This document shows, piece after piece, positions 12,427-59,044 of a DNA stretch of 60,573 nt. The position numbers were made by a program, and so were the translations under genes. Source of the stretch: a virus (taxonomy: Duplodnaviria; Caudoviricetes); the IMG/VR virus record IMGVR_UViG_3300017764_000003, positions 1 to 60,573 of that record, one strand, 5' to 3'. Below the pieces are notes generated by a model. That model was not told the DNA's origin. It saw only the letters and a program-made list of their open reading frames with translations, and ran no database searches. The stretch's first letter is position 1. Every line of letters starts with the position of its first letter.

Positions 12427-12453
12427 ATTTAAACAAACAATAAACAATAATCA

Positions 12454-12522: not shown

Positions 12523-12524
12523 AT

Positions 12525-12809: not shown

Positions 12810-12814
12810 ACCTG

Positions 12815-13880: not shown

Positions 13881-13881
13881 A

Positions 13882-14325
13882 CTATTTATTTTTGCTAGAC
13901 TTAGCAGGCACTCTATTATCATCTTCAACTAGATGTTCAAATACCAAATAGATATTATCAACACCTTTCATTTTAGATGTTCCCTTCTCTAAGTCTTTTA
14001 ATAAAATCTTAGTTAAATCTACGTCAATGTCCATAGATAAAATATCACCATACTCTTTTATGAATACAGCCATTTTAGTTTCTTCTACAGTCTTGACTCC
14101 ATCTTTATCACTCCCATGTTTTTCAACTAACTTAAGCCTAGCTTCTTCAATAAGCTTGTCTTTCTCTGTTAATTCTTTTTTATTAGCTGCTAGAGTAAAC
14201 CATACTCTAGGAGTAAAATTAGAATCTGCTTTACTTAATTCAGTTAAAGCACTTAATAAACCTTTTACATTGTCATTCGTCATTTTCATATTCGTCATTG
14301 TTTTATTTACGTTTTGATTTTTCAT
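13882..14325 (-). CDS. Conserved phage helical protein
   Basis: ORF; start uncertain. Confidence 0.65.
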   Translation of the reverse strand: MKNQNVNKTMTNMKMTNDNVKGLLSALTELSKADSNFTPRVWFTLAANKKELTEKDKLIEEARLKLVEKHGSDKDGVKTVEETKMAVFIKEYGDILSMDIDVDLTKILLKDLEKGTSKMKGVDNIYLVFEHLVEDDNRVPAKSSKNK

Positions 14326-28900: not shown

Positions 28901-31900
28901 CTGTAGCTTCAACATATGAATCAGTTTTTTCTTCTACAGTCTCTTCTATAGTTTCTTCTACTTCTTGTATCTCTTCTGCTGTTGGTTCTGTTTCTTCTGT
29001 TACTTCTACTTCAGCTTCTACAGTTGGTGCAGGAAGATTTGCTCTAGATATATCTATAGTCTTTTTAATCTTAGCAGCATCTTCTTCAAATAACTTATCT
29101 AATTCTCCTTCTATTTCATTTGTAAGATTTGATGCTTCTTCAAACTTTTCTTCTGCAATAAGATCATCTACAATTTTAGTTTTACCTTGAAGCTCTTCAA
29201 ATGCAGCTTTCTTAATAGGCAATTGTTCTTGGAATGTAGCTTGTTCTTCTGCAGCATTTTTAGCTTCTGCAGCTTTATCAGCTTTTTTACTTTGCTCTCT
29301 GCTTAATCCTATTTTTTTAGATGCCTCTACTAACTGATCAATTGTAAAATCTCCTTTAGCTAGTTGATTAAATATAACAGTACCACCTACTTTACCATTA
29401 GATTTCTTTTTAAAACTTTCTTTAAGACCTAACAGGTTTTCTAATTCTGTAGCTTGTTCAATAGTAATATCATCTTTTGATAAACCTGTAAGTAGTCTAA
29501 TTATATTTCTTTGAGCTTTTCTTTTTCTAATTGTAGCTTCTTTTCCTTTAGTTTTATTTTTTACATCTTCTAAAGCTAATTTAACAGAACTAAGATCTTT
29601 ATTTTGAGAAGCAGTTAACTCCTCAGAAACAACTTCCCCTGCCTCTTCACTTTTCAAAGCTTCTGTAGGGGAGGAAGTCGCTTCATCGGTTACTTCTTTT
29701 TCTGCATCAACTTGTTCATCAGACTTACTTGTTGTTTCAGGTATTACTTCAGGAGATGTTTGTTCTTCTACAGGTGAATCTTCTATATCCTCAAATAAAC
29801 TTAATTGAGTCTTTTCAGCTTTATCTATATCTACTTCTGTTTCCTGATAAGAATCAAACTTAGGTGCAGGTATTGATCCTTGTGATCCTAAATGACTCTT
29901 ATAGTCAATTAAATATGATAATGTTTGTTCTATTTCTTTTCTTTCTTTTAATACTTCTTCTGAAGTTAAACTTCTTTGTACTCTTTGTTTTCTACCATTT
30001 CTTCCAAGAATAAACATAGACTCCTTGTAAGAATTATATAAGTATTCTATAGCAGCATCTAATGATATAGGATCAACAGGCTTACCATCTTTAGATCTAC
30101 TTATTGCTCTAGTAATTGATGGCAACATATCTGCCATAATAGGAATCTTAGGTAAAGAAAACTTACTAACCCTGTTATTAATAGCCTTATCAACTTTTGC
30201 TATGTCTTCTTGAGTGTCTTCAATTACATCTTCTGCATTCTGTTTAGCATATCCTTCTTTTATTAACTCAGAACCTTTAATAGTAACTACAGCTACACCT
30301 TGTTTATTTGTAGCAATACTTACCGCATTGTCTCTTAGTATTTTTGGAATCAACTTTTCATCAGCGTAAGTAATTTTTACTTGATCTTCTGCATTAATGT
30401 ATAACTCTCTTCTATCTGACTTAGATGTTATTTCTACTATCCCTGCCTCATCTTGAGATTTTAATTCTTCTTGTCTTTTAGATCTTACAATTTTAGTTTT
30501 ACCTTCTTGACTTCCTTCTAAAAATTCAGCTAGTTCTGTTTCTTGTTCTTGACTTAAAGACTCTTTAGCTTGTTCAATTGCTTTATCTACATGAGCAGCT
30601 ATCGCAGGATCTGTAATTTGATTTCTCATCAATATTGCAGACTTTATATGAAATAAACCTTCAAATGTACCTGCAAACGTAGCACTTATAATTGCTGTTA
30701 CTGCTGCTTTCTTTTCTGCTTCAGTTGATGTTTGTCCAAATGTTTGATCAAATGCTCTATCTATATCGTCAAATCCATGTCTTTTAACTTGGTTTACAAA
30801 TTCACCTGCATACTCTTGTGTGAATTCAGCAACTGTTTGTACTCCTGCTCTAGTACCTGATTTCAATAATGTATTTACTAGCTTACCATACTTTCCTGAA
30901 AACTTATTAGCAACATCTAAGTATTGCCATCCACCTTCAACAAATCCTTCACCAAATCCATGAGCAGCACCAACTGTACCTGATGGAGTTAAAGACCATT
31001 GTATAGATGTATTAATACCACTCTTACCTGCGGCATATAAAAACTCACCTGTCTTACCCCACTTGTATTTCATCATGTGCCTTACTAATCTTAAGGCTTT
31101 AACACTTCTTACAGATGCTGATGTTGCACCTGCTATTGGACTTCCTGCAACAGAAGTAAGTATAATCTCTGCCATGATTGGAATAGATGCTCCAATACCA
31201 CCTGCAACCATTGTACTAATATCTTCTTCTGCAATTTCTTTTTGTTCAGGGGTTAAATTAACTCCTGCATTAGATAATTCAGTATATAGTGTTTTTGAGA
31301 AATCATCATCAGTTATTGTTTTATATCCAAGCTGTTCTACTAAAGAGTTAGTCATAGTATTTACAAATCCACCTACACCCTCTCTAACCTTATCATCGAA
31401 TAAACCAATAGTAATACCTGCAGGATCTTCATTAGTTAACAATGCTCTATTTAATATGTCAAATCTTTTTCTTGATGCTTTGTAAGCATCAATTCTTTCA
31501 TCAAATATTGCATTATCTTTAGATCCAACTCTAATACCAACCTCACGAAAAGCAAACTTATCCATGTCTGATGCTGATCTTGAAACAACCATGTTTTGTA
31601 AAACACCTACTTTTTGCTCCATATAATCTCCAAGAGTAATAGTTACATTTCTCTTTTCATTATATAGTCCTTCGTAGTATTTAACATTTGATAAAGCATC
31701 TAAGTATAGTGTAGATAAAACATCTGTATCCATCTTTCTATACTCTATTGCTTCTGCATTTATATCATCATTATACTTTTTAGTTTCATCAGATGCATCT
31801 TCAGCAAAAACAAACTTACCTGTCTTAACATCAAATAACTCTCTAGGATTATCCTTTAATTTTCTAGCTTCTGTTTGCTTCTTAGCTATTTGTATACTTA

Positions 31901-33650
31901 TCTTTTGTTGCTCATTTTGATCTTCTGTAGTAGCTTGTTTTTTTCTTAAGGAATTTATTTCATTTTGTAGTTGATAAACTTTTTGTTCATCCTCAGAAAG
32001 TCTTTCTACACCATATGCAATCTCTTCAGATATTACTGCTTTTTTAATATTCTTAACAGCTTTTGCATTATTTGGATCATATATATTAATACCATTTTGT
32101 TTTGCAACTTGCTCTACTCTATTACTAACGTGATACTTTCTTGAAGCATTTTTTTCTGTCCCACTTTTATAGTTAGCAATTGCAAGTCTAGCTGATTGTT
32201 CGTCTATGTCTTTTCCAAGATTGTCTTCTATTTGATCAATAACTTCATCTACATCTTCATGATTCATCATGTTTACAAAGTAATCGCTTTTACCTTTTAA
32301 GACTTCATCTACATAACCTTTGTATACTTGCTGTTCTTTCTGCTTTAACTCTAATGATTGAGCTGCATCTATATATATAGGAGTAATTGGTTTTTCTATA
32401 GATGTTGATTCTGATTCAGCAATTTCAGGAATAAAATATTTATTGTTGTCTTGAATAATTTTTTCTAAATCTGAAGTGTTTGCTTCAGGAACAATTACAG
32501 GCTGATAATCATCTTCAGAATAATAATCTGATATTGCTTTTAATGCCTGATCTTTAGATATATTATCATCTAATGGAGTTTTACCTCCTGATATATTCAT
32601 ATATTCTAAAACATAATCGCTCTGCTTTCCTTTTTCTTTTCTAAGCTGTAGCTTTAAGTTTTCGTATTCTTTAGTTTTTGTATACTCTAAAGGGGCATTA
32701 GCCATCATTCCTACTATGCCATCATAATTAACATTCTCTTCAGTAAACTTTTTAGCTTTTGCTTTATTCAAATGTTGTTTAAGAAACTCTTCAGTATATC
32801 CATCTTTGTTCATAAGAGAGTCAGGATTTTCTCCTACAAGCTGAGTAAACTCAGACTTCCAATATGTTTCATGATCAGTAGGTTTAAGTTCTTTTCCAAA
32901 CTTACCTAAACTTGCCCAATGATATATAGGATTTCCTTCTAGGTCTAAGTGTTCTTTATTTAACTCAGGCTTTACGCCTGCTTTCCACGCACCTCTGTAG
33001 TCGTAACCTTCTTGAGTTGGTTCTTCTCCATACTGTTTAACAAACTGTTCTTTCCATGCAGTTATTGCAGGATCAGAATTCCAAGACTGTTGAAACTGAG
33101 CTTCTTCTTCGTTATTTAATAAGGTAGTATTATCAGTTGATAAAAAATTATCATTGATTTCTTTTTCTATTCTTAAGGCATCTATACCTGCTTGTTTTTT
33201 CTTTGCAGTTAATTCCTCTTCATTTAATTTTCTTTCTCTATTAAACTGACCTCTTATAGGATTAGGATCATTTACATTTACTATTCCTGAATCACTAACT
33301 GTAGATGCTGTTTGAGTTGACATACTGTCTTCTATAGCGGTACTGTCTTGTATAGCAGTAGTATCTTGTATAGTAGAATCTACAGATCCACCTACAGGTT
33401 TCATCTCAGAAAGAGGAGATGCTGTTTGAAGATCGCTATAAAAATCTAAATATTTTTTAGAGCTATCTAATAAACTTTTTTCTTTATCTCTTTTTATTGC
33501 ATCAAAGACTCTTAAGCTATATCTTCTTGATTTTAATTTTTCTTTAAATTCAGGGAAATCAACAGTTAATTCAATATCTTCTCTTTCTCCAAATCTATCA
33601 AAAATTCTTCTAGCTAAATCCTCATTCTGTATATTACTACCTAAAGACAT
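22986..33650 (-). CDS. Giant internal virion/ejection protein (3554 aa), large-polyvalent-protein-like
   Basis: Follows two smaller ejection-like genes; helical, E/K-rich linkers; C-terminal DNTFGG.NW...LLSPDW motif. Confidence 0.75.
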   Translation of the reverse strand: MSLGSNIQNEDLARRIFDRFGEREDIELTVDFPEFKEKLKSRRYSLRVFDAIKRDKEKSLLDSSKKYLDFYSDLQTASPLSEMKPVGGSVDSTIQDTTAIQDSTAIEDSMSTQTASTVSDSGIVNVNDPNPIRGQFNRERKLNEEELTAKKKQAGIDALRIEKEINDNFLSTDNTTLLNNEEEAQFQQSWNSDPAITAWKEQFVKQYGEEPTQEGYDYRGAWKAGVKPELNKEHLDLEGNPIYHWASLGKFGKELKPTDHETYWKSEFTQLVGENPDSLMNKDGYTEEFLKQHLNKAKAKKFTEENVNYDGIVGMMANAPLEYTKTKEYENLKLQLRKEKGKQSDYVLEYMNISGGKTPLDDNISKDQALKAISDYYSEDDYQPVIVPEANTSDLEKIIQDNNKYFIPEIAESESTSIEKPITPIYIDAAQSLELKQKEQQVYKGYVDEVLKGKSDYFVNMMNHEDVDEVIDQIEDNLGKDIDEQSARLAIANYKSGTEKNASRKYHVSNRVEQVAKQNGINIYDPNNAKAVKNIKKAVISEEIAYGVERLSEDEQKVYQLQNEINSLRKKQATTEDQNEQQKISIQIAKKQTEARKLKDNPRELFDVKTGKFVFAEDASDETKKYNDDINAEAIEYRKMDTDVLSTLYLDALSNVKYYEGLYNEKRNVTITLGDYMEQKVGVLQNMVVSRSASDMDKFAFREVGIRVGSKDNAIFDERIDAYKASRKRFDILNRALLTNEDPAGITIGLFDDKVREGVGGFVNTMTNSLVEQLGYKTITDDDFSKTLYTELSNAGVNLTPEQKEIAEEDISTMVAGGIGASIPIMAEIILTSVAGSPIAGATSASVRSVKALRLVRHMMKYKWGKTGEFLYAAGKSGINTSIQWSLTPSGTVGAAHGFGEGFVEGGWQYLDVANKFSGKYGKLVNTLLKSGTRAGVQTVAEFTQEYAGEFVNQVKRHGFDDIDRAFDQTFGQTSTEAEKKAAVTAIISATFAGTFEGLFHIKSAILMRNQITDPAIAAHVDKAIEQAKESLSQEQETELAEFLEGSQEGKTKIVRSKRQEELKSQDEAGIVEITSKSDRRELYINAEDQVKITYADEKLIPKILRDNAVSIATNKQGVAVVTIKGSELIKEGYAKQNAEDVIEDTQEDIAKVDKAINNRVSKFSLPKIPIMADMLPSITRAISRSKDGKPVDPISLDAAIEYLYNSYKESMFILGRNGRKQRVQRSLTSEEVLKERKEIEQTLSYLIDYKSHLGSQGSIPAPKFDSYQETEVDIDKAEKTQLSLFEDIEDSPVEEQTSPEVIPETTSKSDEQVDAEKEVTDEATSSPTEALKSEEAGEVVSEELTASQNKDLSSVKLALEDVKNKTKGKEATIRKRKAQRNIIRLLTGLSKDDITIEQATELENLLGLKESFKKKSNGKVGGTVIFNQLAKGDFTIDQLVEASKKIGLSREQSKKADKAAEAKNAAEEQATFQEQLPIKKAAFEELQGKTKIVDDLIAEEKFEEASNLTNEIEGELDKLFEEDAAKIKKTIDISRANLPAPTVEAEVEVTEETEPTAEEIQEVEETIEETVEEKTDSYVEATESFENKVKEVRSRLKKEKKKLKKGKGNKETIFSDIRKAFKLLNNSLGAGNMSQEVLQNYLDKVNGFINQGMQSNLNESITKEEQKAITEALMGAKSKILKANPNYEVTKKGDREIISETQESINAKKAEAKSLSQAKRKESKIKNGDFRLSEKQVKSRNMGDIDVGSVITLDEDVADGKVTGKRVKGKKGQEYTVTRKIKKGKGDGYFEYIFAEGNIPLTEIQETVAGEFAVKPTAPKPKAQPKAETKVEPTAPKETTAKTESIQDLVGQEITLTDDLLNNAETRTVVSVNEVKTNKRNWTRLTLDNGVVVNIPTARAMTKAYKVPKSKLGVVKETVAEETTAPKETTVAEETTTEETSDETTDIEQTTDFLAKMAEGFKKFKFTPNAEPSSVKRSKSSIKYTYKGVDTDGKGQEYEYEYSVTVLLNKDGSVSKRPTKVETNKKTETQKKTQQLEEVQENESNNIPEQTTEPTSNTAIDYIENVDEIVNGISVESNTINNGEETQVNKAKRKTNLRKLKQKLDIDQMSIILDYLGIEEKIEDKEQFIESLEEKGIFETNESTRKFLESAKKALQADASAKKEQVEKIEALETQVEETKKQEQKTNDALEKEIQKLKEEAPEISATDIGIAIDAAKILKEANHPWTEGIEGDFVEAVKTILNRINSHAKLEKDYSREFKDNWNAAKGNRNSARILAKVEDKAVQKAKLDLIKVLNKTFKTADAQLQKQTEVIEKALGNISPDQGSSYIEKGIKNMKEGISEGRSSTQIGGLKGSAKWFTGASQWVYGHAINAARNIPFYKNAIIKKYGSLTKFFANPFNVYSEAVNQTGLLFEEVGSGLGKLIDSLANSAYKVAKGKINRQKVIKIYKGLIKPMSFLTNKVIVPAAQRISKAGYIDVIADSKIQYQKVINDILNNKSIGTIADIQLSLSQTLTALYNQQAKIQEAVKEGKYSKEELQKYEHITYALNEILNDIKDMSNYNGIRGMLKAEAEPSGSRSKFFNLNSGAKTVFEKRLLRIAKDEVTKLMYSRYGNIEVRRRRLEKLARGMSEEMTEAERNALTFILDGSKSVPSKTNFKKGTVDKNEKFRNEVQYLIDNPTDAINKFKPLVKAEIEAIGKYMQNNKQLSTNVDLAASYFPHFYKIIKFDEQYKNQESFKKFVNNTLSQNAKGNKWGNYEEAIGMGFDPVTLDASKLMKLYSEGTNNFIENKNFTNSLLELTVDGNQSGAKLAYTEGSRNIPPSYKKIDNPRFRAHIFDMYKTKKQKDLFKEEEKGQWVSKYIYVHPKVYQQIQGIVGVKTFNWEQKYLEETGRSVNEISALELLNPLNDIKLEYKQKVFLALERWNNFTKKINLTMSAFHHLALTETLLSTPDSFTRGIKYGANLLKLFTGFKTDDFLIFKESESVNTELAIKHGLQVKSAPDQHLELHETLLDELEYTWDSSFKTNLNPFRKDKGVRKITNRWDDFLWDYMHNNYKLVAFQALYADAELNLSKKLDSDKITVNQYKTDLEAVGRAIAKHVDNTFGGQNWQLLSVNPKTLRLASLVLLSPDWTVSTAKQALAPFAGFSEAKIFQTLDPSGNARDYVKRLGIDVGSNNEFANKFVRKAGYRFWASVALKQYMFMNLINMATTAWFGEKDEEEQKEFEKLSFYGKLMTGRPMWKNDPDLLTGRNSLGIFIGVNPEDGKADYVHLGKQMKELPELIFNPLGRLLSKSSPLPQAVSRVLFGMSPSGYDLYDLQDDNVGNQAIRIISELGLSTTPFFLQNQIRSAFQPKYTPTETWTNRAITFFAPIKNGTNEFEVIKGFKESFEDKDPHRFADFLRVARENSIPVKSVIKRAQREYIREKEKELLDLKKDKNSLASTNPLVYLAYKNLMENQFQAFLVGTETQQGVLDVLKEDEELFKDILRKRKGASKPTVSQIKEGLYAPEYIPNLTENVKQNIDSIKNNKKFTTDLDNKNKEEELIKELRKMLLGE

Positions 33651-37536: not shown

Positions 37537-40500
37537 CTAAGCAGCACCACCGCCACCATCAACTTGTTCAACTACTAACGGCTCAATACATTTACAGCTT
37601 TTAGGAGTAATGGTTTCTTGATCTTGAGCATTATTATAACGAGCAGTTATACTTTCGCTTCCTTCAGCTACACAAATCTTAAAGTTTTTTGGCGTAAGGT
37701 TATTAAATGATTGTCCTCCAAATAATAAAGTTACTCCTGTATCATTTGTTGTTAAAATTAAAACATCACCTTCAGCTACTCCAATTGTGTCATTACTAAA
37801 ATATGTTTGCCCATTAGTAAAACTAGAGTCTATTAAATCTATTCCCTTTGGTTGAGCATATAATGTTTCAGAAATTTTAGCTTGTTCATATTCTGATGAA
37901 GGACACTTTATGTTTAGCCAATACTCTTTATGCTTAGAATTATAAGTACCTGTTAATTTAGTTTCAAATCCATCTTCTATATTTTTTAATTCAGGATTTA
38001 ATCTAGAATAATAATTTTGTCTACCTAAATCTAAAACAGTATCATTAAACAATTTATATACTGTGTCTTTGTTTGCCCAATAAATAGATGAGTCTGATTC
38101 TGCTGCAGTCCTCCACATTTCATCAGGCATTCCAATATTCTTTTTAATCCAAACTTGTTTTTGAACTCCTTGACTTTCTGTTCCAATAACAGCTAATTCA
38201 GATCCTGATACTTGAGACAATAATCTTTTATTTGTTACTAATAAACAGATTCCTGATTCTGTAAACGCATACAAGTTATTTCCTTTTTCCCCTTCAGTAT
38301 CATATGCATATTTAATTTCACCTGTTTCATCAGATAAATCAAAAATATTTAATGCTCCAAAAGTTCTTAAATTAGGAGAGTCGCTAACATTAATAGGCTT
38401 AATATCTGACCAAATAATTCTAGTACAGAAATCTGTTTTAGCTTCAAATGCTGATGGCGTTGATGAATATGAATGAAATGTATTTTCAGCAGCGTAGTCT
38501 TGATTTACTACAGATCTATATCTAAAACCTCCATAGTTCCAATAAGTATCTTCTTCTCCTAGTTCATTGTAATATTCTTCAAATACATTTCTTTGCTCTC
38601 CAATAGATTCATTTTGCCATTTATATGGTCTAGCTCTATGATGTACTAATGGATAAAATTGATCTAATGCATTAGGAGAATCAGGATTCATGTACTGACT
38701 ATGTAGCGGTGTTCTGCTTTGAGATATATACATAAGAAGCCATTGCCTTACTCTCATAGAGTTTATGTTTCCTATTGTAGCTACGTTTGAATTCTGAATT
38801 TCATTTGATCCCCCTGTGTTATTTACTATATAATTTCTAGGAGTTATTTCCCACTTATGTTGTGGCATACCAATACTTAACGCAAGATCTAAATCTTTTG
38901 GCTTACTATCATTTTTATATTCAATGTCTACCCATCCTACTGTAGCTTCACTACTAAAAGAATCTCCACCATATATTGATAAAGGGATTCTATCATCATA
39001 CTTAACATATATTATAGAACCTTTAGAAGGTATATAAATATTTGCATCATAGTTGCTAAGTGATATTCCTTTATCTGTAATTGTTGTAGAATCAAAGACT
39101 AAGCTAGGCTTTTGATTTTTATAGTTTTGACCATTCCATTTATGTGAGTAAACTCCATAAACTTTTACTGTAGTTAAAGAAGATGGATCAAGAGTAACTT
39201 CAGCATAACCATTAGATTTTATAGCATTTAGTATTGCTTCTGCAGGAGTTATTGTTTTAGTAGTAATATCTAGCCATCTTTTTTGTGTAGTTGTTCCTTG
39301 CTCTGTTACATAAACAAACTTATTATAATCATGATAGTTTTTAGTTTGACCACTAATTCTAGTTCCGTTAGCGTAATCACCATCGTTGTTCCAAACAATA
39401 TCTGTAATACAGTCTTCCCATCTTTCATCAACAAGTTGCTCTGTAAACCCTACTCCTTTAGATAAGTAGAAAGCAGAATTCATTTGTTGTGTGTGACCTG
39501 TGCTTATATATTGAGTTGACTCTCCTTGAGATGGCTCATTGTTTTCTTTTATAATAGAAGCTATATAATAAGGTTCATGGAAATTTTTTGTTCCACTATC
39601 ACTCATATGCTTAAGACCTGTTCCACCAAAAGAAGCGTTATATAAATTATTATCAAGCTCTACTGTCCAATAGTGACCGCCTCTATTTCCTGAAATTTCT
39701 GATGATCCTGATACATATTTAAAAGATTTAATATTAAAAGTTCTTTTATTATTATTCCAAACAGTAGATGCATTATTATCAGGGTTTCTCCATCTTCCAA
39801 ACGCAACGTATCTAAAAGAAGAATCAGATATTGGCATATCAGAATCATCATTAGGTAAATACCATTTAGTCCCTGAAGGCTTTTGGTCTTTTTGCATATA
39901 AGCAAAACTAATTAAATCAGCTCCTTCATCTTTACCGTTTGATTTATTAATCGTATATATTTCTGTATTAAATCCTACAGGAGATTGTAACACTAGCTTA
40001 TACTCTAATGAAGATGATTGCTCTACGTTAGTTGCTAGATTGCTAAACAATCCATTTGTTGTATCAAAATCTGCACTATAAAAAGTACATATATTTTTTT
40101 CTTTACTTGTATTCTCTCTTTGTTTATAAGCTGAGTCTATACTATACCAAACTAAACCTTCTGCTAAAACTCTCATTGCTGCTTTAGTTCTAACAATAGA
40201 AAAAGATGATGCCCAAGAAGGAGCGTTAATTTTATCTATAGCTAGCCCCATTGCATAAAAGTCATTAGCAAACATATAGTTTTCTTGCCATAGGTTATAG
40301 TCATTATTGCTATACCAAGTTTGTCTATGAGGATTATGATGATGTCCATTACCTGTATTAGCATCATTAATATCTCCAAGCTGTTGTGGCTTTAAAATAG
40401 CGTATGGAGGCTTGTATACTGTACAAGCTTTTGATGTAACATAGTTAAATCTAGAGTCAGGTAAGTCACTTGATTTAGTACATCCTCCACCTGTAGCCCA

Positions 40501-42129
40501 CTCAAGATCAGGTTGGTTAGTTCTTATTGTACCAAATACTTCTTTTTGACATTTAGATCCTTGATCAAGAAATCTAATAAAAGCACATCTGTTTTTTCTA
40601 GCTTTTCTAAGATACGATCCATAACAGTCGTGAGTATAATCTAAATTATTAGATGAGTTTGATCCATACAATGCTCCTGTAAATGATATGTTTTTTGAAT
40701 CATCAGACAATGATTGTCTTTTAGATGGAAACTCAAAATAGTCTTTTACCCCTGTTCCTTGATTAAATTTCAAAGGAGTAGTAAAAGTTTTACTACCATT
40801 AGCATCTCTAAACACAACACCAAATCCATATCTTTCTGAATTCATATATTGTTTTCTATATGCAAATTGCCATGGATCATTATGTCCTGCTAAAAACATA
40901 TGATTTAAAACAGGAAAACCATTAACTTGATTGTTAGATCCTGTACCTACACTAACATCAGTAACATCTTTACCATCTGTAGAGACATTCATAAAGTATA
41001 ACCTATTGTTAAAAAACCTTACAGCTTTTGCTCTAGATATAGATGTTGTAATTAATGTAGCCTCTTCATCAGATATTGCTTCTATTGTATCCATACTTCT
41101 GTCTAGGACATTGTATGATCGTATGCTGTCTTCTTCTAAATCAAATCTAGCTACAATAAAAGCTGTTGGCTTAGAGTCTAATAATACAGGATCTCCTGAA
41201 TTCCATGCAACCCTAATAACTTCACAAGACTTAAATCCTTTTGTTTCATTACCTCTTACAGAAATAGATAATCCATATTCTGTTTCAGAAGCTGTATCAA
41301 ATCCGTAAGTATATGCCCAAGGGTGTATATCTGTGTTTTTACTTATATTTTTGTAAATAGGTATTGTTGGAGTAAACTCTGATATTTCAGTTCTATTCCC
41401 TTCAGAGTCTATAAACCTTACAGCGTAAGCATAAGTACCAACAGTTAATCCATTACCTCCATTAGTAGCATCATAGTTACCTGAATTAGTTGTGTGATAC
41501 TCAAGAAATCTTGGTGAATTAACGGTGTTTGATATGCTAATAGTATATAAATCTGAATCAAACGATCCAAAATATTTGTCGCTTCCATTGTTAGAATTAT
41601 AAATACCTGCATTATCTTCCATGTCTTTTATATTAAAAAACATAGGAGGATTTACATTATCAGTTACATATACCTCTCCGCCAATACAAGATTCATTTTT
41701 GTCCATCTGCAATGGATTATCAAAAGTAAAAGGTATGCTAGATGACTGTGCAACAATTAATCCATCTATTTTTATAGTAGGGTATTTTAATTGGGCATCA
41801 ATATAATCTGTTGTAGAACTTGGTTCGTAAGCCCAAAACTCTATTAATTTGTTGTTTATTTCTATTGCACCAATACATATTTGGTTTGCAGAAATAGCAA
41901 CAGCTCCTACAGATTTAGTAAAACTATTAGTAGAATCTGAATTAGAGTATAATAAAGTTTCTCCTTTAATTTTTTTTAAAGCAGCATTGTCGCCACTCAT
42001 ATCATTTGGTCTGAAATTACAGGCATCAATATATGATCCTTTATCTCCACCTAAAAATTCTTTATTGATGTCATAGTTAGCTCCTTTGCTAAATAGATTT
42101 GACTCATATGGATGGTGCTGCTGCTTCAT
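37537..42129 (-). CDS. Tail stabilization/nozzle protein (1530 aa)
   Basis: F.KG.N.D...Y.DA.N N-terminus, RIIWSD, beta-rich; follows the ring proteins. Confidence 0.7.
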   Translation of the reverse strand: MKQQHHPYESNLFSKGANYDINKEFLGGDKGSYIDACNFRPNDMSGDNAALKKIKGETLLYSNSDSTNSFTKSVGAVAISANQICIGAIEINNKLIEFWAYEPSSTTDYIDAQLKYPTIKIDGLIVAQSSSIPFTFDNPLQMDKNESCIGGEVYVTDNVNPPMFFNIKDMEDNAGIYNSNNGSDKYFGSFDSDLYTISISNTVNSPRFLEYHTTNSGNYDATNGGNGLTVGTYAYAVRFIDSEGNRTEISEFTPTIPIYKNISKNTDIHPWAYTYGFDTASETEYGLSISVRGNETKGFKSCEVIRVAWNSGDPVLLDSKPTAFIVARFDLEEDSIRSYNVLDRSMDTIEAISDEEATLITTSISRAKAVRFFNNRLYFMNVSTDGKDVTDVSVGTGSNNQVNGFPVLNHMFLAGHNDPWQFAYRKQYMNSERYGFGVVFRDANGSKTFTTPLKFNQGTGVKDYFEFPSKRQSLSDDSKNISFTGALYGSNSSNNLDYTHDCYGSYLRKARKNRCAFIRFLDQGSKCQKEVFGTIRTNQPDLEWATGGGCTKSSDLPDSRFNYVTSKACTVYKPPYAILKPQQLGDINDANTGNGHHHNPHRQTWYSNNDYNLWQENYMFANDFYAMGLAIDKINAPSWASSFSIVRTKAAMRVLAEGLVWYSIDSAYKQRENTSKEKNICTFYSADFDTTNGLFSNLATNVEQSSSLEYKLVLQSPVGFNTEIYTINKSNGKDEGADLISFAYMQKDQKPSGTKWYLPNDDSDMPISDSSFRYVAFGRWRNPDNNASTVWNNNKRTFNIKSFKYVSGSSEISGNRGGHYWTVELDNNLYNASFGGTGLKHMSDSGTKNFHEPYYIASIIKENNEPSQGESTQYISTGHTQQMNSAFYLSKGVGFTEQLVDERWEDCITDIVWNNDGDYANGTRISGQTKNYHDYNKFVYVTEQGTTTQKRWLDITTKTITPAEAILNAIKSNGYAEVTLDPSSLTTVKVYGVYSHKWNGQNYKNQKPSLVFDSTTITDKGISLSNYDANIYIPSKGSIIYVKYDDRIPLSIYGGDSFSSEATVGWVDIEYKNDSKPKDLDLALSIGMPQHKWEITPRNYIVNNTGGSNEIQNSNVATIGNINSMRVRQWLLMYISQSRTPLHSQYMNPDSPNALDQFYPLVHHRARPYKWQNESIGEQRNVFEEYYNELGEEDTYWNYGGFRYRSVVNQDYAAENTFHSYSSTPSAFEAKTDFCTRIIWSDIKPINVSDSPNLRTFGALNIFDLSDETGEIKYAYDTEGEKGNNLYAFTESGICLLVTNKRLLSQVSGSELAVIGTESQGVQKQVWIKKNIGMPDEMWRTAAESDSSIYWANKDTVYKLFNDTVLDLGRQNYYSRLNPELKNIEDGFETKLTGTYNSKHKEYWLNIKCPSSEYEQAKISETLYAQPKGIDLIDSSFTNGQTYFSNDTIGVAEGDVLILTTNDTGVTLLFGGQSFNNLTPKNFKICVAEGSESITARYNNAQDQETITPKSCKCIEPLVVEQVDGGGGAA

Positions 42130-51339: not shown

Positions 51340-53376
51340 TTAACTCAAACTTCTTCCGATGTACTTTAACACCTTTCCGTTGTCATCTACTTCTGCTAAT
51401 CTTAATTTCCAATTAGTCTGTTTGTTTTGAACATATCTTGTGTGTTTTCTTTTAGCAGAGTCTTTTCTTATTTCTTTTGGCTCATATCTATTGAATGCTT
51501 CAGAGCATATATAGGAAAAGTTTATAGAAAATATAACATCATCAAAGTCATACTTAAGGTCAGCAGCTTGATATCTAGACTGCCTTAATGTATTTGTACT
51601 CTTTAAAGATTTTTCTACAAAGGTTTTACATTGTAACCAAAACCAAAGTATATATATGTTCTCAGCATAAAGATCAATTAACTCAATAAGCTTGTTTGTA
51701 ATCTTACCTGCTGTATTAGTTCTGTTTGATATACCCCACCACTTTGATGTTGGTGTTTGCATATAAGCAGGTAGATCGCCATTCCCTGCTATCCTTCTAC
51801 CAAATCCCCATCTCTCTAAAAAGTCAATATACATATCACCAATATTAGATTCTACTAATTCTTTTAGTGTACTTGTTTGTTGATCGTAAAACATTCCCAT
51901 CAATGCACATTGCAAGTATACTAGTTTGAATTCTCTTATTCTCCAATTAATCACACACACAGGTGCATTAGCCCAAGAATCCCAAATAGCAGAACTCATT
52001 TTAGACTTACCTGTTTCTGAGTTAATCGGATCTGTTCCTTGATAGTATCTATACTCCCAACCCTTTTCAGGTTTCTTAAACATAACACAAGTTGTTCGCT
52101 CATCATCCATACCTTTGGTTGGAATAAACTCACAGCCTACAATTTTAAATGGTACGTATTCATCGTCAGTTGGTTGTGTTGAATCATAAGTTGGAAGAAA
52201 ATATCCATACTGTGGTTGATCATCAGAATTAAGTTGATGTATCTTAAGTATTTGTTTGTTAATAAAACTAATAGGCACTATTGAAGTAGACTTTCTAAGG
52301 AACATATCATCAATAGTCATAGGGTAATGTTGATGGAATTGTACCTTTGATGCTTCAGCTTCTGCTCCTGTTACGGAGTAGTAGTATTTTTTCTCTTTCT
52401 CGTAGATGTCCCTTGTCATCCCCTCACGAGCAAAACAATCGAAGAATAAGGGTATAACCCCATAATCGTAATTGCGTTCAAACCAAGCGTTGTAAGCAGC
52501 CTTAAACTCGGCTTCAAAGACTGCTCCTCCCTTGTCCATTTCTCCACCTGTCCCCCAAGCGATCAATTGACGTTTCATTTCCATCTTACCATTTGATGGA
52601 TTATAGAAGAACAAAGCAGGTCTTCCTTCCTTCATCATACGTGTGAATATGTTAATCAATCCTATCTCATCAATTAGAACTAAGTTAGGTTGTCCTCCGT
52701 TGATTGCATCTACAGCAGGAGTTACTACTTCCACCATAGAGTTAGCCCCTGATGTTTCTCCTTTAGTCTTTCCTTTCTTTCTAAGTGAAAGCATATTGTG
52801 TGAGAAGTTGTATACATCGTTTCTAAGATAGTCAGGTATTCTACCGAACGACCATTGTATCTTGTCTCTAAAGATCTCTTCACCTTTCTCTTTGGTATGC
52901 GTTACGAACTTAACGTAGTAGGACTTGTTGAAGTTTATTCTTTTGTTTGCTAGTAGTCCAAGCGTTGATGTAAATCCAATTTGTCTTGCCTTACCTAAAA
53001 GCATATTGTATCCGCAGTCAGCTAAAAAGTATATTACTTCTTGAGCCTTCCATGCTTTATAGGATATGCCTCCACCATCAACATCTCCTTCTTTCAGCCA
53101 TCCATACTTGTTGGCATAGTACAATGTATTGTCCCTGCACCTAAAGTATTCACGAATAATATAGTCTTCTTGTTCATCCTCATCGCTATAGTCAACAATC
53201 TCATCAGTATCCTTTATCCATGAATTAGATTGTTTCTTGTATATCTCAAAGGGTTCATACTTAATTTGATTCTCCCATCCTTTATTAATAGAGTCAATCC
53301 AAGCTACTAGTTCTTTAGGATACTCTAAAGGTTTGTGTGATGGATACCATTCAGACGTTTCTATTTCGTAAGCCAT
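51340..53376 (-). CDS. terL: Terminase large subunit
   Basis: KARQIGFT Walker A, LVLIDEIG Walker B, F.Q.YP, GTDP and DD nuclease motifs. Confidence 0.93.
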   Translation of the reverse strand: MAYEIETSEWYPSHKPLEYPKELVAWIDSINKGWENQIKYEPFEIYKKQSNSWIKDTDEIVDYSDEDEQEDYIIREYFRCRDNTLYYANKYGWLKEGDVDGGGISYKAWKAQEVIYFLADCGYNMLLGKARQIGFTSTLGLLANKRINFNKSYYVKFVTHTKEKGEEIFRDKIQWSFGRIPDYLRNDVYNFSHNMLSLRKKGKTKGETSGANSMVEVVTPAVDAINGGQPNLVLIDEIGLINIFTRMMKEGRPALFFYNPSNGKMEMKRQLIAWGTGGEMDKGGAVFEAEFKAAYNAWFERNYDYGVIPLFFDCFAREGMTRDIYEKEKKYYYSVTGAEAEASKVQFHQHYPMTIDDMFLRKSTSIVPISFINKQILKIHQLNSDDQPQYGYFLPTYDSTQPTDDEYVPFKIVGCEFIPTKGMDDERTTCVMFKKPEKGWEYRYYQGTDPINSETGKSKMSSAIWDSWANAPVCVINWRIREFKLVYLQCALMGMFYDQQTSTLKELVESNIGDMYIDFLERWGFGRRIAGNGDLPAYMQTPTSKWWGISNRTNTAGKITNKLIELIDLYAENIYILWFWLQCKTFVEKSLKSTNTLRQSRYQAADLKYDFDDVIFSINFSYICSEAFNRYEPKEIRKDSAKRKHTRYVQNKQTNWKLRLAEVDDNGKVLKYIGRSLS

Positions 53377-53547: not shown

Positions 53548-54102
53548 TTATTCTTTATCTCTACTAAAAGCCGAAGGCTTTTTGCGTAAATCATTTTCTA
53601 CAAATAACCCTGTCTTCTTCCTGATATTAAGCCTACTACCCTTCCAAGCTATTGCAGGATTAACATAATAAACTTTCTTCTGTTTAGATCCATGCTTAAT
53701 TATCAGTCGGTATCCTATCAATGCATTAATACTTGTTGTTACCGAACTCAAGGACATAGACAGTTCCTTTGATAGCTTCCTGTAAGTAATACCGAATACA
53801 GCATTCTCATATCCCATCTTGGATATAAAATAAAGTATAACCTTAATCTGATTAGGCGATAACGTACTCATCAAATCCTGAAGCGACTTCTGATATAGAG
53901 TCGAATATGATACCTTATCGTTAACACCTTTCTTAATCCTGTTAAGTACATTGATAGAATCAGCCCCATAGTATTCAGCTATCTTTGTCATCTCTCCTGT
54001 CTTCTCATTCATATGATATAAAGACTCGGAGGTTAATAGTTCAGGATCAATAGAGTTAAGATTACTATGAAGGATGTTTAATGTCTTTCTTAGTTTCTTC
54101 AT
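53548..54102 (-). CDS. RepL-like winged-HTH protein
   Basis: TYRKLSKELSMS.SSV..SI..L and YYVNP.IAWKG. Confidence 0.7.
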   Translation of the reverse strand: MKKLRKTLNILHSNLNSIDPELLTSESLYHMNEKTGEMTKIAEYYGADSINVLNRIKKGVNDKVSYSTLYQKSLQDLMSTLSPNQIKVILYFISKMGYENAVFGITYRKLSKELSMSLSSVTTSINALIGYRLIIKHGSKQKKVYYVNPAIAWKGSRLNIRKKTGLFVENDLRKKPSAFSRDKE

Positions 54103-54433
54103 CTTTCTTTGCTTCTCTTATCATCTTACTTGTTTTAGAAATAACCCTAGTATAGTAAGATACTTTTTCTTCATGTGTGGCAGTTAGTTCTTTGTAGATA
54201 AACTTTACCATCCCTAAGAATGTATCAGGATCATGATCTCCCTTTAGTTGATTACACCTTCTACATGAATATACTTTATTGTCATTGGATAAGATTCCGC
54301 CTTTAGATTTAGGGACTATGTGATCAGTAGTTCTATTCCAATCATTTAATCTCTCTCCACAATAGAAGCACTCATACTTATTTGTCTCTTCTTTATTTCC
54401 GAAACTTTTCCAATTTTTTTTTGAATTGCTCAT
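54065..54433 (-). CDS. HNH endonuclease
   Basis: CFYCG...TTDHIVPKSKGG...N...C..CN..KG. Confidence 0.92.
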   Translation of the reverse strand: MSNSKKNWKSFGNKEETNKYECFYCGERLNDWNRTTDHIVPKSKGGILSNDNKVYSCRRCNQLKGDHDPDTFLGMVKFIYKELTATHEEKVSYYTRVISKTSKMIREAKKDEETKKDIKHPS

Positions 54434-54722
54434 ATCTATAATTCTGTTTTATATAATCTATAATTTGAATATAGCATTTCTTGTTTTCCCAATCATCATG
54501 AATCCTATCTAGGAAGAAGTCTATAGTCTCCCATTCCCATTCATACTTATCAAGAGAATCTGTTTCAGGTATTGTGTGGATTACTATAGTAGATAAACGA
54601 TTTAATATGCCTGTGGTTTTTAACACCCTAGCAAACACGCCTACCTCCAATTCAACAACATCTCCTTTTGCTATGTCATCTAGATCTATCCGTTTCTTAT
54701 ACTTGTGAAACTTAATTGCCAT
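54393..54722 (-). CDS. Hypothetical protein, first gene of the late arm
   Basis: ORF. Confidence 0.6.
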   Translation of the reverse strand: MAIKFHKYKKRIDLDDIAKGDVVELEVGVFARVLKTTGILNRLSTIVIHTIPETDSLDKYEWEWETIDFFLDRIHDDWENKKCYIQIIDYIKQNYRYEQFKKKLEKFRK

Positions 54723-54937
54723 ATACTAATATACTAATAATATTATGCTTGTACGCATGAGAGCATCACTTTGTTACTCTGAGTAATACATCTTTTTTTG
54801 ATAATCGCCTGATAATCAACTACTTCTTGATTATCCCCCTATATATATTGTTATTGGTATATAATATATACTATAGACTATAAACTATTCTTTACTGTTA
54901 ATCATTTACTTATAGGCATTAACTTCCCCTTAAAGTA

Positions 54938-55005
54938 TCTTTCTTTATTTCTTTCTTTCTTTGCATACCACCTTGCATTACATATGCTATGCACTTGCAT
55001 TACTT
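54938..55005 (-). repeat. TGCA-repeat block C plus AAAG tract
   Basis: 54956-54979 (minus) matches 1358-1381 at 22/24 nt. Confidence 0.8.
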
Positions 55006-55189
55006 ATGTATAAAGTTATTTATGTTATACTATTAATTGTTTATGCTTTGTTTATAATTGTTTACTGTAGAACTTAAACGCATTGGTATCTGTTAGGGTA
55101 GTATTAATATAGAATAGCCCCTCGACTTTTACAGGAAAATCAATAGTTTCAGAAGATCAACAGCCTAACGAAATAAAAGGATTCTTTTT

Positions 55190-55504
55190 ATAACCGACTG
55201 ATTATCAATTAGTTATATGTACGGTTTTTACTCATATATATTTCCTTTAATTTATAACTTGTTGAGTTTCAACGGCTTGAAGTCAGGGTAAATGTATGTC
55301 TGTGGGTAAAACAACAATACCCAAACCTATCAACCTATTGATTATCAACGACTTATGTTTTGACGAAAATCTCAATTGGGCTTGTTTGTTACAAATTTGT
55401 TGACAATGGGCATTTTGACGAAATCAGGACTCATATATATATATAGGAAAACTTAGTCAGATCCATCTATAGGGTTATAACTTGTTGATTATCAACGACT
55501 TACG
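55190..55504. repeat. Four ~27-bp imperfect palindromes centred on TGATTATCA
   Basis: Copies at ~55190, 55252 (TGAGTTTCA variant), 55331, 55475; related cores at 54799-54836. Confidence 0.8.
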
Positions 55505-55511
55505 ACTTTTA

Positions 55512-55544
55512 TTTGGATAATTCAAAACTTTTATTGATAGTTAG
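55512..55544 (+). promoter_or_regulatory. Possible early promoter for the structured RNA and early genes
   Basis: TTTG at 55512, degenerate -7 (ATAGTTAG); composition shifts right after it. Confidence 0.35.
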
Positions 55545-56073
55545 GACATCAGCAAAACAGCACACCACGCTACTAGCTGATACAAGCAAGTTACTTGAAA
55601 CGCACACAATGTAACCTCTGTTTACGACAATATGCGTTTGTTACAAAGGCTACCACCGTATGCATTGTAACGAGAGGAACGGTGGGAGTGGGTTCTACCT
55701 TACTGACTTACCAAGGGGTTCTACCTCGTCAGGACAACACTCGATGGCTATAGGATAACAGCCGATAATTTGCCGAGCAAAGCAGAAACTTTGTTGGGAG
55801 TCTGAGCAACAGAATTAAGCAAAAGCGTGTGAGGTATGTAGAACAGGACAGCTACGTACTGCAGAAATGCCACACAAGTCTATGTTCCATTAGGGGCTCA
55901 AAGGATAGGTTTTAGTAGGGTTGAATACCTTGCATTTCCGTAAAAATAAAAGTCATAACAAGGCGTAGGTAGTTCGTACTAGGTGCAATGTATGTTGTAC
56001 GGTATGAATAAGATGCATTTGTCAGGTGAGTAAGGCAAAGTAAGACATTAGATCGAATCTGACCTACGCCTCA
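55545..56073 (+). ncRNA. Large structured RNA of unknown family with a 3' tRNA-like domain
   Basis: No long ORF; GC-richer than flanks; more than ten nested helices; G-U wobble pairs favour the + strand. Confidence 0.7.
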
Positions 56074-56106
56074 ATTATTAATCAAACACACACTAAATTC
56101 AAAGTT

Positions 56107-56454
56107 ATGGCTAAGTCAAACAATTATCAAGAGAATGTATTAAATGTTAATGCAAGTTACAAGAAGGTTTCTAAATCATTAGGTGCAATACGTTCATCGT
56201 TACTAGCAATGGATGGTACAACCATCAAAGATTCAGAAGGCAAAGATATTGTATTCAAGTTACCTTCTTTCACTAAGAAGGTGCTAACCTTTATGAAGAA
56301 GAACCAAAATGCTTACAAGTTTGTAAAGCAAGAGGTTAGAAAGACAAAGGATGGAGAAAATACAACTGTATTCTATGTATTACAGAAGCTAGGTAATCAA
56401 AAGTTCGAAAACGCTTTCAAAGCAAAGTTCTTAATAGCTACACCTAAAAAGTAA
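56107..56454 (+). CDS. First early protein, basic
   Basis: ORF after the structured RNA; A-rich leader without SD. Confidence 0.75.
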   Translation: MAKSNNYQENVLNVNASYKKVSKSLGAIRSSLLAMDGTTIKDSEGKDIVFKLPSFTKKVLTFMKKNQNAYKFVKQEVRKTKDGENTTVFYVLQKLGNQKFENAFKAKFLIATPKK

Positions 56455-56459
56455 GGAGC

Positions 56460-56744
56460 ATGAAATCATTAAATTTACAAGTCACAGGCACAATAGTGTT
56501 TGTGGCTATGTTGCTATGTGCATGGTTTATGGACTATGAAACTAGAACAGAAAAGTATCATACGAGTCAGGTTACAGCAGTACACTTATATCATGCCTTT
56601 GTTGATGGGACAATCATGCAAGGGGACAATCTACATGAGTTATGGTATTGTCAAGATGCTAACTATGATCATTATTATTTCAATGTAGAAGTAGGGACTA
56701 ATGTATTTGGTCACGAAACTAGAACCTATAAAGGAGGATATTAG
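56460..56744 (+). CDS. Early protein with N-terminal TM helix
   Basis: AAGGAG RBS. Confidence 0.65.
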   Translation: MKSLNLQVTGTIVFVAMLLCAWFMDYETRTEKYHTSQVTAVHLYHAFVDGTIMQGDNLHELWYCQDANYDHYYFNVEVGTNVFGHETRTYKGGY

Positions 56745-56745
56745 A

Positions 56746-56922
56746 ATGAGTAAGAAAGAATATGTGTCTACCATATTGCAATTCGTTAATAAGGTAGATA
56801 GTGCTTCAAATAAGTTGCACATAGAGAATGTGAATATGCTAGTAGATGTAATGATTGAGCAATCACGTACAGATGTGCTAAATGCATGGATTTGTGAGTT
56901 AAAAAGCAAAAAGGAGGCTTAA
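56746..56922 (+). CDS. Small early protein
   Basis: AAGGAGG RBS places the start at 56746. Confidence 0.65.
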   Translation: MSKKEYVSTILQFVNKVDSASNKLHIENVNMLVDVMIEQSRTDVLNAWICELKSKKEA

Positions 56923-56926
56923 GATT

Positions 56927-57073
56927 ATGTATAAATGTATGTTTAGAGCAAGTGGAGGATCGTATTCTATGAATTATTACGATCTACCAACAGAAGAAGA
57001 AGAAGAAATCATAGAGATAATAAAATCAGATGGATGGGAAGTATTAGAAGTATACGACATCAAACAACAATAA
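56927..57073 (+). CDS. 48-aa acidic early protein
   Basis: Read by hand; AAGGAGG RBS. Confidence 0.65.
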   Translation: MYKCMFRASGGSYSMNYYDLPTEEEEEIIEIIKSDGWEVLEVYDIKQQ

Positions 57074-57091
57074 AATAAAAGGAGGCTTAAG

Positions 57092-57331
57092 ATGAGTAAG
57101 ATAAGCAAGTATTACCCTATGGATGAAGCATTCTGTGGGGTTATTGAGGATTTACACGTAGATGTTGATCATCAAATAGCATTGTGCCAAGAGATGATAG
57201 ATTGGTATGAGTATAGAGAGTTTATGGGATATGAGTGCAAATTGGGTAGACAAAGAGCCAAAAAGCATCATGCAATAGCCTCTAATATATCAAAGAAGAT
57301 AGATTTATTCCTTAACGTATGTAAAAACTAG
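57092..57331 (+). CDS. Hypothetical early protein
   Basis: AAGGAGG RBS. Confidence 0.7.
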   Translation: MSKISKYYPMDEAFCGVIEDLHVDVDHQIALCQEMIDWYEYREFMGYECKLGRQRAKKHHAIASNISKKIDLFLNVCKN

Positions 57332-58379: not shown

Positions 58380-58676
58380 ATGGCAGAAATAATCTTAAGA
58401 ACGCCTCTGAATAGATTTCAGGGGCTTTCTAGTACAAAGAAGTCTTTAGTATTCCTGACTAGTAATCACAATGGTAAATACTATTCAATTCCTATGTGGT
58501 CAGTCATATCTAAAAGAGAGTACGAGAAGACTGTGAACTCATACGTGATGAAGTTCATAGAAGTTAAATTTGACAGCAAAGCTATTGAAGGTGTGTATGC
58601 AGGTGCTGTTTCTTTAAAATACACCTTAGAATTTCTTGAAGAATTAAATAAAAATGGAACTAAAATTTTAAGATAA
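58380..58676 (+). CDS. Hypothetical early protein
   Basis: ORF. Confidence 0.65.
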   Translation: MAEIILRTPLNRFQGLSSTKKSLVFLTSNHNGKYYSIPMWSVISKREYEKTVNSYVMKFIEVKFDSKAIEGVYAGAVSLKYTLEFLEELNKNGTKILR

Positions 58677-59044
58677 TGAATATTAGACGTAACAAAGCTA
58701 TCAACTTAATCAAAAAGATTAAGAGCAAAGGACATTCATTTGGTGTGACTTACATCAAAAAGAACGGTGAAGAAAGAACAATGTTAGCTAGGCTAGGTGT
58801 TCAACCTAACTACGAAAAGAAAAGAGAACAAGCCTATACTCCAAGTGATTATGGTTTGCTTACGGTTCTTGATGTTAACAAGACTAGAGTAGCTAGGAAG
58901 ATTAAAAAGGATAAAGACCTGAAGGTATACAGACAAGTTAATGTCAACACCTTGTGCAGAATTAAGTACGGAGGTATAACTTACTTTGTTATCGGTAACG
59001 AGTTAGATAAGAACGCTTACAAATCAAATAAAAAGGAGGTATAA
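58676..59044 (+). CDS. SH3-beta-barrel (DUF2693/WYL-like) protein
   Basis: F.V.YIKKNGEERTM.A...V.D...YR motif. Confidence 0.65.
   Translation: MNIRRNKAINLIKKIKSKGHSFGVTYIKKNGEERTMLARLGVQPNYEKKREQAYTPSDYGLLTVLDVNKTRVARKIKKDKDLKVYRQVNVNTLCRIKYGGITYFVIGNELDKNAYKSNKKEV

Follow-up and report, generated by a model that had tools for sequence, protein, structure and literature searches.

The window, as the stretch of DNA analysed here is called, corresponds to a single linear virus record of IMG/VR (IMGVR_UViG_3300017764_000003), 60,573 base pairs (bp) long and with a completeness estimate of 88%, and it is AT-rich, with a guanine-plus-cytosine (GC) fraction of 0.324. The minus-strand genes span 54722 down to 11387, those for a portal protein, a large terminase (TerL, 51340-53376), an HNH nuclease and a RepL/HTH protein among them, while a set of small plus-strand genes begins at 56107 and runs on at the left end of the record into replication genes. 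Between the two units lies a divergent intergenic gap of 1384 nucleotides (nt), 54723-56106, and inside this gap is the subject of this study, a tract at 55545-56073 without open reading frames (ORFs). The initial annotation had read the tract as a large ornate RNA of possibly new class, made first on infection. We find no good evidence for such a class, and the reading that we prefer, with a probability of roughly 0.4, is that the tract is a cis-acting untranslated 5' leader of the early operon. If real, it would be an orphan phage early-operon leader with a folded element, and not a demonstrable new class.

The tract is non-coding, as annotated. Its longest stop-to-stop frame is 58 amino acids (aa) with translation table 11, 58 aa with table 4 and 76 aa when TAG is read as Q, and a coding reading under these alternative genetic codes was rejected since no frame was opened. 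Codon periodicity is absent, with a z score of -0.79 as compared to +2.0 to +6.9 in five coding controls, which makes a decayed gene unlikely and argues in particular against a recently dead one. By eye, a 23-codon frame starting with GTG after GAGAGG can be seen at about 55672-55753. The higher GC content that had been noted was also recovered, the four GC-richest 300-nt windows of the 1206 in the record all lying in the tract, with fractions of 0.43 to 0.463 as compared to a mean of 0.324 and a standard deviation of 0.033. Apart from one 11-nt pair, GGGTTCTACCT, the tract is free of repeats; this pair was found in six other viral contigs, in all of them as unrelated tandem repeats.

The base composition suggests a direction for the tract. 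On the plus strand the purine fraction is 0.579 ± 0.045 over plus-strand genes and 0.420 ± 0.049 over minus-strand genes, and along the gap it rises, being 0.35-0.42 at 54650-55100, about 0.49 at 55025-55625 and 0.53-0.62 in the tract. Since this matches the plus-sense genes, the tract probably belongs to the rightward unit. The strand composition, together with a promoter-like box common to the phage and its closest relative, L003 (TerL 76% identical), is the reason why we place the tract in the plus-strand early transcript. The segment 55519-55606, which holds the box and the first ~60 nt, aligned with the start of the L003 tract at a score of 37.5, as compared to 27.1 ± 3.3 in shuffles, two of 200 of which reached it. 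A sigma-70 scan, which demands a -35 hexamer, misses the box AAAACTTTTATTGATAGTT. Judging from the sequence, transcription would start near 55550. A rut-like excess of C over G at the start is weak, with a C/G ratio of 1.4-1.6 across the initial ~100 nt. A scan of 54300-56600 revealed no terminator-like site on the plus or the minus strand; the clear, canonical terminator of the phage is bidirectional and lies at about 11330-11352.

Among the matches listed, the tract was found in part in 24 sequencing runs of 17 studies, and two of these runs, both of one sample that may be where the record originates, contain at least half of its words. Four runs, one of them an RNA library (X9), were compared over 54300-57300, where they hold scattered low-depth contigs of the same phage. 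X9 has one 254-nt contig at 55702-55954 and no other in this region, and the lack of a contig over 55542-56312 in the DNA run X5 is a coverage gap only. That there is no transcript at all, a possibility raised in the initial annotation, is weakly contradicted by the X9 contig (depth 2.1). The same annotation had put the tract at the head of the early transcript; the plus-strand composition, the box shared with L003, the lack of a terminator-like site and the X9 contig all agree with this placement, which is mostly inferred.

At the 3' end of the tract a folded element of 40 pairs was found, the 3' domain, which takes the form of a four-way junction. Stacking of its closing stem (10 bp) on the first arm (9+7 bp) could give 26 bp. 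The fold has a z score of -4.09 with none of 200 shuffles as good, the minimum-free-energy structure makes up 16% of the ensemble, pair probabilities are 0.77-0.97 and the positional entropy is low. On the minus strand the z score is -3.14, and with DNA parameters it is only -2.25. The inner arms are specific to the plus strand because of their eight G·U pairs (our count). From the end of the domain to the start codon of the first early gene there are 35 nt, A/C-rich and mostly unpaired, and for the 12 nt adjoining the gene, 56095-56106, the unpaired value is 0.90. The 24-nt motif that provides one strand of the closing stem occurs twice in the record as AAATAAAAGYCATAACAAGGCGTA, in inverted orientation (two matches within three mismatches, none in 100 shuffles). 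As an exact pattern it was absent from the viral contig collection, and a similar stretch in L003 has no second copy there.

For most of the tract body no fixed structure could be demonstrated. The initial annotation had described the tract as almost wholly occupied by nested helices, and the ten complementary pairs that it listed, the pseudoknot pair included, are all present where they were reported. In the partition function, six of the nine listed nested helices have a pair probability of at least 0.6, and CCACCGT/ACGGTGG, GAGTG/CACTC and CTGAC/GTCAG lose to competing helices with probabilities of 0.97-0.98. The described occupation was not recovered, as the frequency of stems and the local folding are at chance level. 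Within 130 nt there are 67 perfect 5-mer stems as compared to 58.2 ± 9.3 in shuffles (reached by 99 of 500), 21 perfect 6-mer stems as compared to 14.8 ± 5.0 (56 of 500) and nine perfect 7-mer stems as compared to 3.8 ± 2.6 (24 of 500); by our count, a single 10-bp stem gives four of the nine 7-mers and all the 8- and 9-mers. A list of helices found by hand in a GC-rich tract is no evidence of an ornate RNA.

Folded as a whole, the tract has z scores of -2.61 and -2.35 on the plus strand (none of 100 shuffles as good at -2.61) and -1.24 on the minus strand (12 of 100). Fifteen coding controls of 529 nt, taken on the sense strand, ranged from +1.47 to -4.03, and two of them, at -4.03 and -3.02, were at or below the tract. 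Eight overlapping 120-nt windows on the plus strand over 55480-56019 gave z scores of +0.71 to -2.24, seven of them above -1.3, and the only one below is the last, which reaches into the 3' domain. The coding regions of this genome also fold below their own shuffles: 200-nt plus-strand windows over 1-14300 have a mean z score of -0.98 (standard deviation 1.5), with 31 of 142 below -2. A long-range helix, 55697-55704/55914-55921, with a pair probability of 0.98, encloses a central domain that has a z score of -1.95 (7 of 200 shuffles as good), the minus strand of the central part being at -0.51. Folding no better than that of shuffles, named in the initial annotation as a ground for giving up the RNA, was seen locally and not for the tract as a whole.

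A long hairpin was also predicted on the minus strand, opposite the 5' part of the tract. The segment 55588-55678 folds there with -32.6 kcal/mol (z -5.18, none of 200 shuffles as good), and on the plus strand with -17.9 kcal/mol (z -0.64). The hairpin fails to form with DNA parameters. The region holds five promoter-like sites as compared to 10.4 ± 3.1 in shuffles, which is fewer than expected by chance. The coordinates of all features are collected in Table 1.

Table 1. Features of the tract and its surroundings, with positions in the window.
Feature	Position	Strand	Description
ORF-free tract	55545-56073	+	Highest GC fraction in the record; presumed 5' untranslated leader of the early operon
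Promoter-like box AAAACTTTTATTGATAGTT	about 55524-55545	+	Adjoins the tract upstream; aligns with an L003 box containing a perfect TATAAT
3' domain, 111 nt	55961-56071	+	10-bp closing stem AGGCGTAGGT/ACCTACGCCT around three hairpins; four-way junction
24-nt motif AAATAAAAGTCATAACAAGGCGTA	55944-55967	+	Provides the 5' strand of the closing stem of the 3' domain
Second copy of the 24-nt motif	11369-11392	-	Between the stop of the last minus-strand gene (11387) and the bidirectional terminator
First early gene	56107-56454	+	115 aa, no family; real gene by periodicity (z 2.56)
Long hairpin	55591-55675	-	28 bp including 6 G·U pairs; antisense to +40..+125 of the presumed leader
Promoter-like site TTGAAT-17-AATAAT	56074-56102	-	Score 9/12; would start an antisense transcript across the tract
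Exact repeat pair GGGTTCTACCT	55690-55726	+	Two copies 26 nt apart
27-28-nt unit TTATAACTTGTTGATTATCAACGACTT with palindrome TTGATTATCAA	55188-55502	+	Four copies upstream of the tract; context, outside the RNA

The contigs related to this phage are of marine and estuarine metagenome origin, and no cultured relative was found in the phage collection, where the best TerL match covers a quarter of the protein at ~25% identity. A GGAG/GAGG core is present upstream of only seven of 54 ORFs; such a Shine-Dalgarno-poor pattern is compatible with the Bacteroidota host guessed at in the initial annotation, and no proof of it. We compared the locus with 37 TerL-anchored loci, 17 from viral contigs and 20 from metagenome contigs, several of which are mutual duplicates; the 1130 nt of intergenic region that were compared are the same in L004, L017, L020 and L021. 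No alignable homologue of the tract was found in ~120 related loci, none by blastn in 50,697 phage records, and none in 80 loci anchored on a 244-aa early protein (the p244 family; best E value 0.41). When the intergenic region was searched with blastn and nhmmer against the 17 viral-contig TerL loci, three hits of 28-44 nt were all that was obtained, and exact-pattern searches for the closing stem pair and for a 24-mer of the tract in genome contigs gave no match.

In the closest relative there is a tract of its own. L003 has ~700 nt free of ORFs before its first early gene, at the same position, with a GC fraction of 0.40-0.45 as compared to 0.34. This tract folds with a z score of -1.78 in the sense and +0.04 in the antisense direction; its sense-strand windows are mostly unremarkable (+1.36 to -2.74, three below -2), and a hairpin window with z -2.44 lies directly before the first gene. 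Left of the tract, where the gap is AT-rich, there are weak alignments with L003, L004 and L009 (61-72% over 112-279 nt), and the gap of L004 has a different organisation. The early proteins are not common to the record and L003. The first early protein has a homologue of 118 aa, P0002, on 14 contigs, the longest of 54,616 bp, with an identity of 78% in the local BLASTP alignment and 79% in the MAFFT alignment. Neither of the two had a match in viral contigs, and their alignment had none in genome contigs. The first early protein had no match in Pfam or PHROG, and its AlphaFold model is poor, with a predicted local distance difference test (pLDDT) score of 61.9.

To known RNA families the tract is not related by any match that we could find. 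Rfam gave no match at the gathering score over the whole window and none at E ≤ 10 over 54600-56300 with permissive filters. Rfam 15 includes GOLLD, ROOL, HEARO, OLE, transfer-messenger RNA (tmRNA), RNase P, group I and II introns and the small self-cleaving ribozymes. ARAGORN found no genes for transfer RNA (tRNA) or tmRNA in the window. There were likewise no Rfam matches in 14 surveyed gap loci, and ten TerL loci gave only a tRNA, in L015. A tRNA-Met (CAT) gene lies upstream of the terminase and on the same strand in three of 15 loci according to ARAGORN (L010 3535-3608, L011 5001-5075 and L015 3780-3853).

We also surveyed ORF-free gaps of at least 350 nt, 83 in all from 111 sources. A GC excess above 0.08 was seen in 14 of them, several of which are alignable in groups, and one such group, that of L052, was aligned. 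We rejected the L052 group as an analogue of the tract, since its GC excess comes from G/C runs and CTGC-type repeats that adjoin a conserved box. In L052 (1650-2000) and in the aligned parts of L055, L060, L054, L050 and L047, this box, GGGTAATACCCCCATTCC ... GGGG ... GGGGGG ... AGCTTTTTG, is followed by variable short CTGC/CCTA repeats and a promoter-like box, TGTAATATAAT, and the phages that carry it have the 244-aa early protein.

Left of the tract, the TTGATTATCAA-bearing unit is present in five or six copies when 54799-54835 is counted, at a spacing of 75-147 nt. In the variant strain of run X5 the copy at 55252 has four substitutions, and the intergenic region of L003 has a similar palindrome, TTGATAATCAA. 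The TTATAACTTGTTGATTATCAACGACTT units could be operators or tandem promoters. Further left, 54930-55150 is the part of the gap that is common to the relatives L003, L004, L009 and L006; in it, a polypyrimidine run and repeated TGCATTAC/GCAATGCA words precede a G-run/C-run box, and its neighbour is the RepL/HTH protein. We consider it a candidate origin or packaging site. The neighbouring protein, 184 aa (53548-54102, minus strand), is encoded between the HNH nuclease and the terminase. Its Pfam matches are RepL (30.7 bits at a cut-off of 20.3) and HTH_36, and a role as replication initiator or as small terminase is conceivable.

Elsewhere in the record there are giant minus-strand ORFs without a Pfam match, at 22986-33650 (3553 aa), 16757-21817 (1685 aa) and 37537-42129 (1529 aa). 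The 3553-aa protein had no PHROG match, and neither it nor the 1685-aa protein had a sequence match in the PDB. The idea that the largest one is an N4-like virion RNA polymerase was set aside as unsupported, given the lack of Pfam, PHROG and PDB sequence matches. Among the early proteins, one of 122 aa (58676-59044, plus strand) matches WYL_2, an Sm-like SH3 barrel, only below the threshold (24.7 bits as compared to a cut-off of 26.7). The strongest fold signal of the 14 kilobases (kb) scanned was at 201-600, within small ORFs at 93-613, where 200-nt windows over both strands have z scores of -2.65 to -5.67, five of the six values being -4.5 or lower.

If the tract is a leader, rightward transcription would begin at a promoter at about 55524-55545, and a leader of ~555 nt would run terminator-free into the first early gene at 56107. 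Its last 111 nt would fold as a four-way junction, and from there to the start codon 35 A/C-rich bases would stay unpaired. Such a leader would act in cis on the early messenger RNA (mRNA). It is conceivable that the 3' domain is a processing or stabilising element, so that a protected 5' end would lie directly before the first gene, and/or that it keeps the start region unpaired, and the GC-rich body may be merely tolerated or may serve elongation control. We infer the promoter, the transcription start, the co-transcription with the early genes and any function of the tract.

There are several points that weigh against this leader. The promoter derives from a single pairwise alignment, and past its first ~60 nt the tract body aligns with L003 no better than shuffles do (277 of 300 reach its score), which also holds for the last 190 nt (353 of 500). 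A single-sequence covariance model of the 3' domain matched only itself in 100 sources of 826 kb, which included 29 of the 37 TerL loci, and there is thus no sign of selection on the structure. The segments of the 3' domain and of the minus-strand hairpin were picked after inspection, and z scores of -4 or lower are not rare in this genome: 11 of 284 background 200-nt windows (3.9%) are below -4, a noisy count as it rests on 15 shuffles per window. The strongest hairpin in the 5' part of the tract sits on the opposite strand, which a leader does not explain. The X9 contig, at its low depth, is possibly DNA carry-over and comes from a run that was found via this same stretch, and the contigs of the runs show neither strand nor transcript ends nor abundance.

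Other explanations have to be considered. The tract may be a functionless spacer, captured or leftover DNA in an early region of fast turnover, with structured pieces that are chance or imperfect DNA palindromes. We regard this as somewhat unlikely. It would fit with plus-strand local folding and short-stem frequency at chance, with a whole-tract z score inside the coding background, with the failure of our searches to find a homologue or a conserved structure, with early genes that are themselves not common to L003, and with the L052 group, where the GC excess of the gap is, as we read the alignment, made up of G/C runs and short CTGC-type repeats. However, a neutral tract of 0.46 GC in a genome of 0.32 GC should have drifted to the composition of the genome, and the absent periodicity speaks against a gene that died recently. 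Plus-sense purine loading and two strand-specific G·U-rich structures are unexpected of junk, and L003 retains a comparable tract in the corresponding position. It is because of the GC excess, the strand-specific G·U pairs and this comparable tract that we disfavour pure junk. A function at the level of DNA, as part of a replication origin, as a packaging or terminus region or as the end that enters first, has little probability. The gap does have repeated palindromic units, the core at 54930-55150 with its polypyrimidine run and TGCATTAC-type repeats is common to relatives, and the genes for the RepL/HTH protein, the HNH nuclease and the large terminase adjoin, but these DNA-like features are all found left of the tract, which has no repeats of its own except the 11-nt pair. 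Moreover, both structured pieces are G·U-dependent and most of their signal is lost with DNA parameters.

The remaining explanations involve an RNA other than a leader. One is a non-coding antisense RNA on the minus strand, which would start from the site at 56102-56074, run leftward with the hairpin 55675-55591 at or near its 3' end, and pair with the leader so as to shut early expression. The hairpin, minus-strand specific at z -5.18, with six G·U pairs and lost with DNA parameters, is what would be expected of it, and so are the promoter-like site at the right edge of the tract and the folding of the minus-strand version of the 3' domain (z -3.14); the limits of such an RNA would coincide with those of the GC-rich tract. 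Against it stand the whole minus strand, which folds at -1.24 (12 of 100 shuffles as good), its central part at -0.51, and the absence of a U-run after the hairpin and of any terminator-like site, in a phage whose own terminator is canonical. The promoter-like site scores 9/12 in a region with fewer such sites than shuffles have. The purine loading favours the plus sense, a rule that is known for mRNAs and may not apply to non-coding RNAs. We give this antisense RNA only a slim chance. The large (~530 nt) ornate RNA of the initial annotation, which would be the first transcript of an infection and would work in trans as a decoy, scaffold or ribozyme, is the least probable of all. Its size, GC excess and non-coding nature are those of an outlier among GC-rich intergenic regions, its plus strand folds better than its minus strand (z -2.61 as compared to -1.24), and the helix 55697-55704/55914-55921 (0.98) encloses a central domain with which the X9 contig nearly coincides. 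On the other side, there are no Rfam matches and no homologue in the phage records, the TerL loci or the p244 loci, the central domain is at z -1.95 (7 of 200 shuffles) and local folding does not exceed chance. Of the nine listed helices, three give way to competitors, no terminator separates the tract from the mRNA, and a class requires members, of which one is known here. The ornate class is disfavoured because no conserved structure was found. A combination may also be imagined, a phage-specific RNA pair of a plus-strand leader that releases or presents a cloverleaf-like 111-nt junction and a minus-strand RNA ending in the 28-bp hairpin. The pair would form a sense/antisense switch, or would yield an RNA that is stable, acts in trans and is the first to be made in an infection; relatives would have their own, non-homologous versions at the same place, and the class would be one by position and composition. 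This is unlikely as well.

Nothing found here would surprise a specialist. The GC outlier and the two strand-specific structures merit attention. Should the leader or its 3' domain have a function, the first genes of an uncultured marine phage group would be under control at the level of RNA, in a group whose early proteins are mostly without a known family. It would also imply, as the nearest relative has unrelated sequence in its stead, that non-coding early elements have a fast turnover.

Long GC-rich intergenic regions have been reported as enriched in structured RNAs (PMC6429828, PMC8632094, PMC8723152). The tract resembles the 'GC-IGR' candidates that come from such regions: its GC excess, +0.136, is the largest of the 83 gaps surveyed, and its gap is among the longest (1384 nt; that of L052 is 1409 nt). 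It differs from them in that nominees of the method require covariation support, whereas the tract stays a candidate.

GOLLD and ROOL are frequently found in phages and prophages. Both are large ornate RNAs (10.1101/2024.12.08.627333, PMC5737381). The tract is like them in being several hundred nt long, non-coding, GC-rich as compared to its surroundings and located in a phage genome. It is different in that these classes rest on many homologues with a conserved, covarying structure, whereas the tract has no Rfam match or homologue, folds locally at chance and has no delimiting terminator. A new class like GOLLD or ROOL, as proposed initially, is thus not sustained by the Rfam and homologue searches or by the folding, which is at the level of the coding background except for the 111-nt domain; an ornate RNA should fold beyond background over most of its length, and the tract does not.

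Shorter regulatory RNAs were also compared. Lambda OOP and P22 sar are phage antisense RNAs. A strand-specific hairpin opposite the 5' part of an early leader is what the tract has in common with them, but the putative RNA here would be far longer, ~480 nt, and it is without a canonical terminator and has only a candidate promoter. A small or antisense RNA bounded by terminators is not what is seen at this locus, with no terminator-like sites and a minus-strand promoter-like site of 9/12. What is seen agrees with a 5' leader: the tract is non-coding, of plus sense and without a terminator before the gene, and its promoter is a predicted one. In coliphage T7, the early leader follows the tandem promoters A1-A3, is several hundred nt long and has the RNase III site R0.3 directly before gene 0.3. 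There is no sequence relation between the two, the repeated units here may be operators and not promoters, and RNase III cleavage is only putative here; the element before the first gene is a four-way junction, whereas that of T7 is a single bulged hairpin. In layout only, the two are alike, with repeated units at a spacing of 75-147 nt, a long leader and a folded element near the first early gene.

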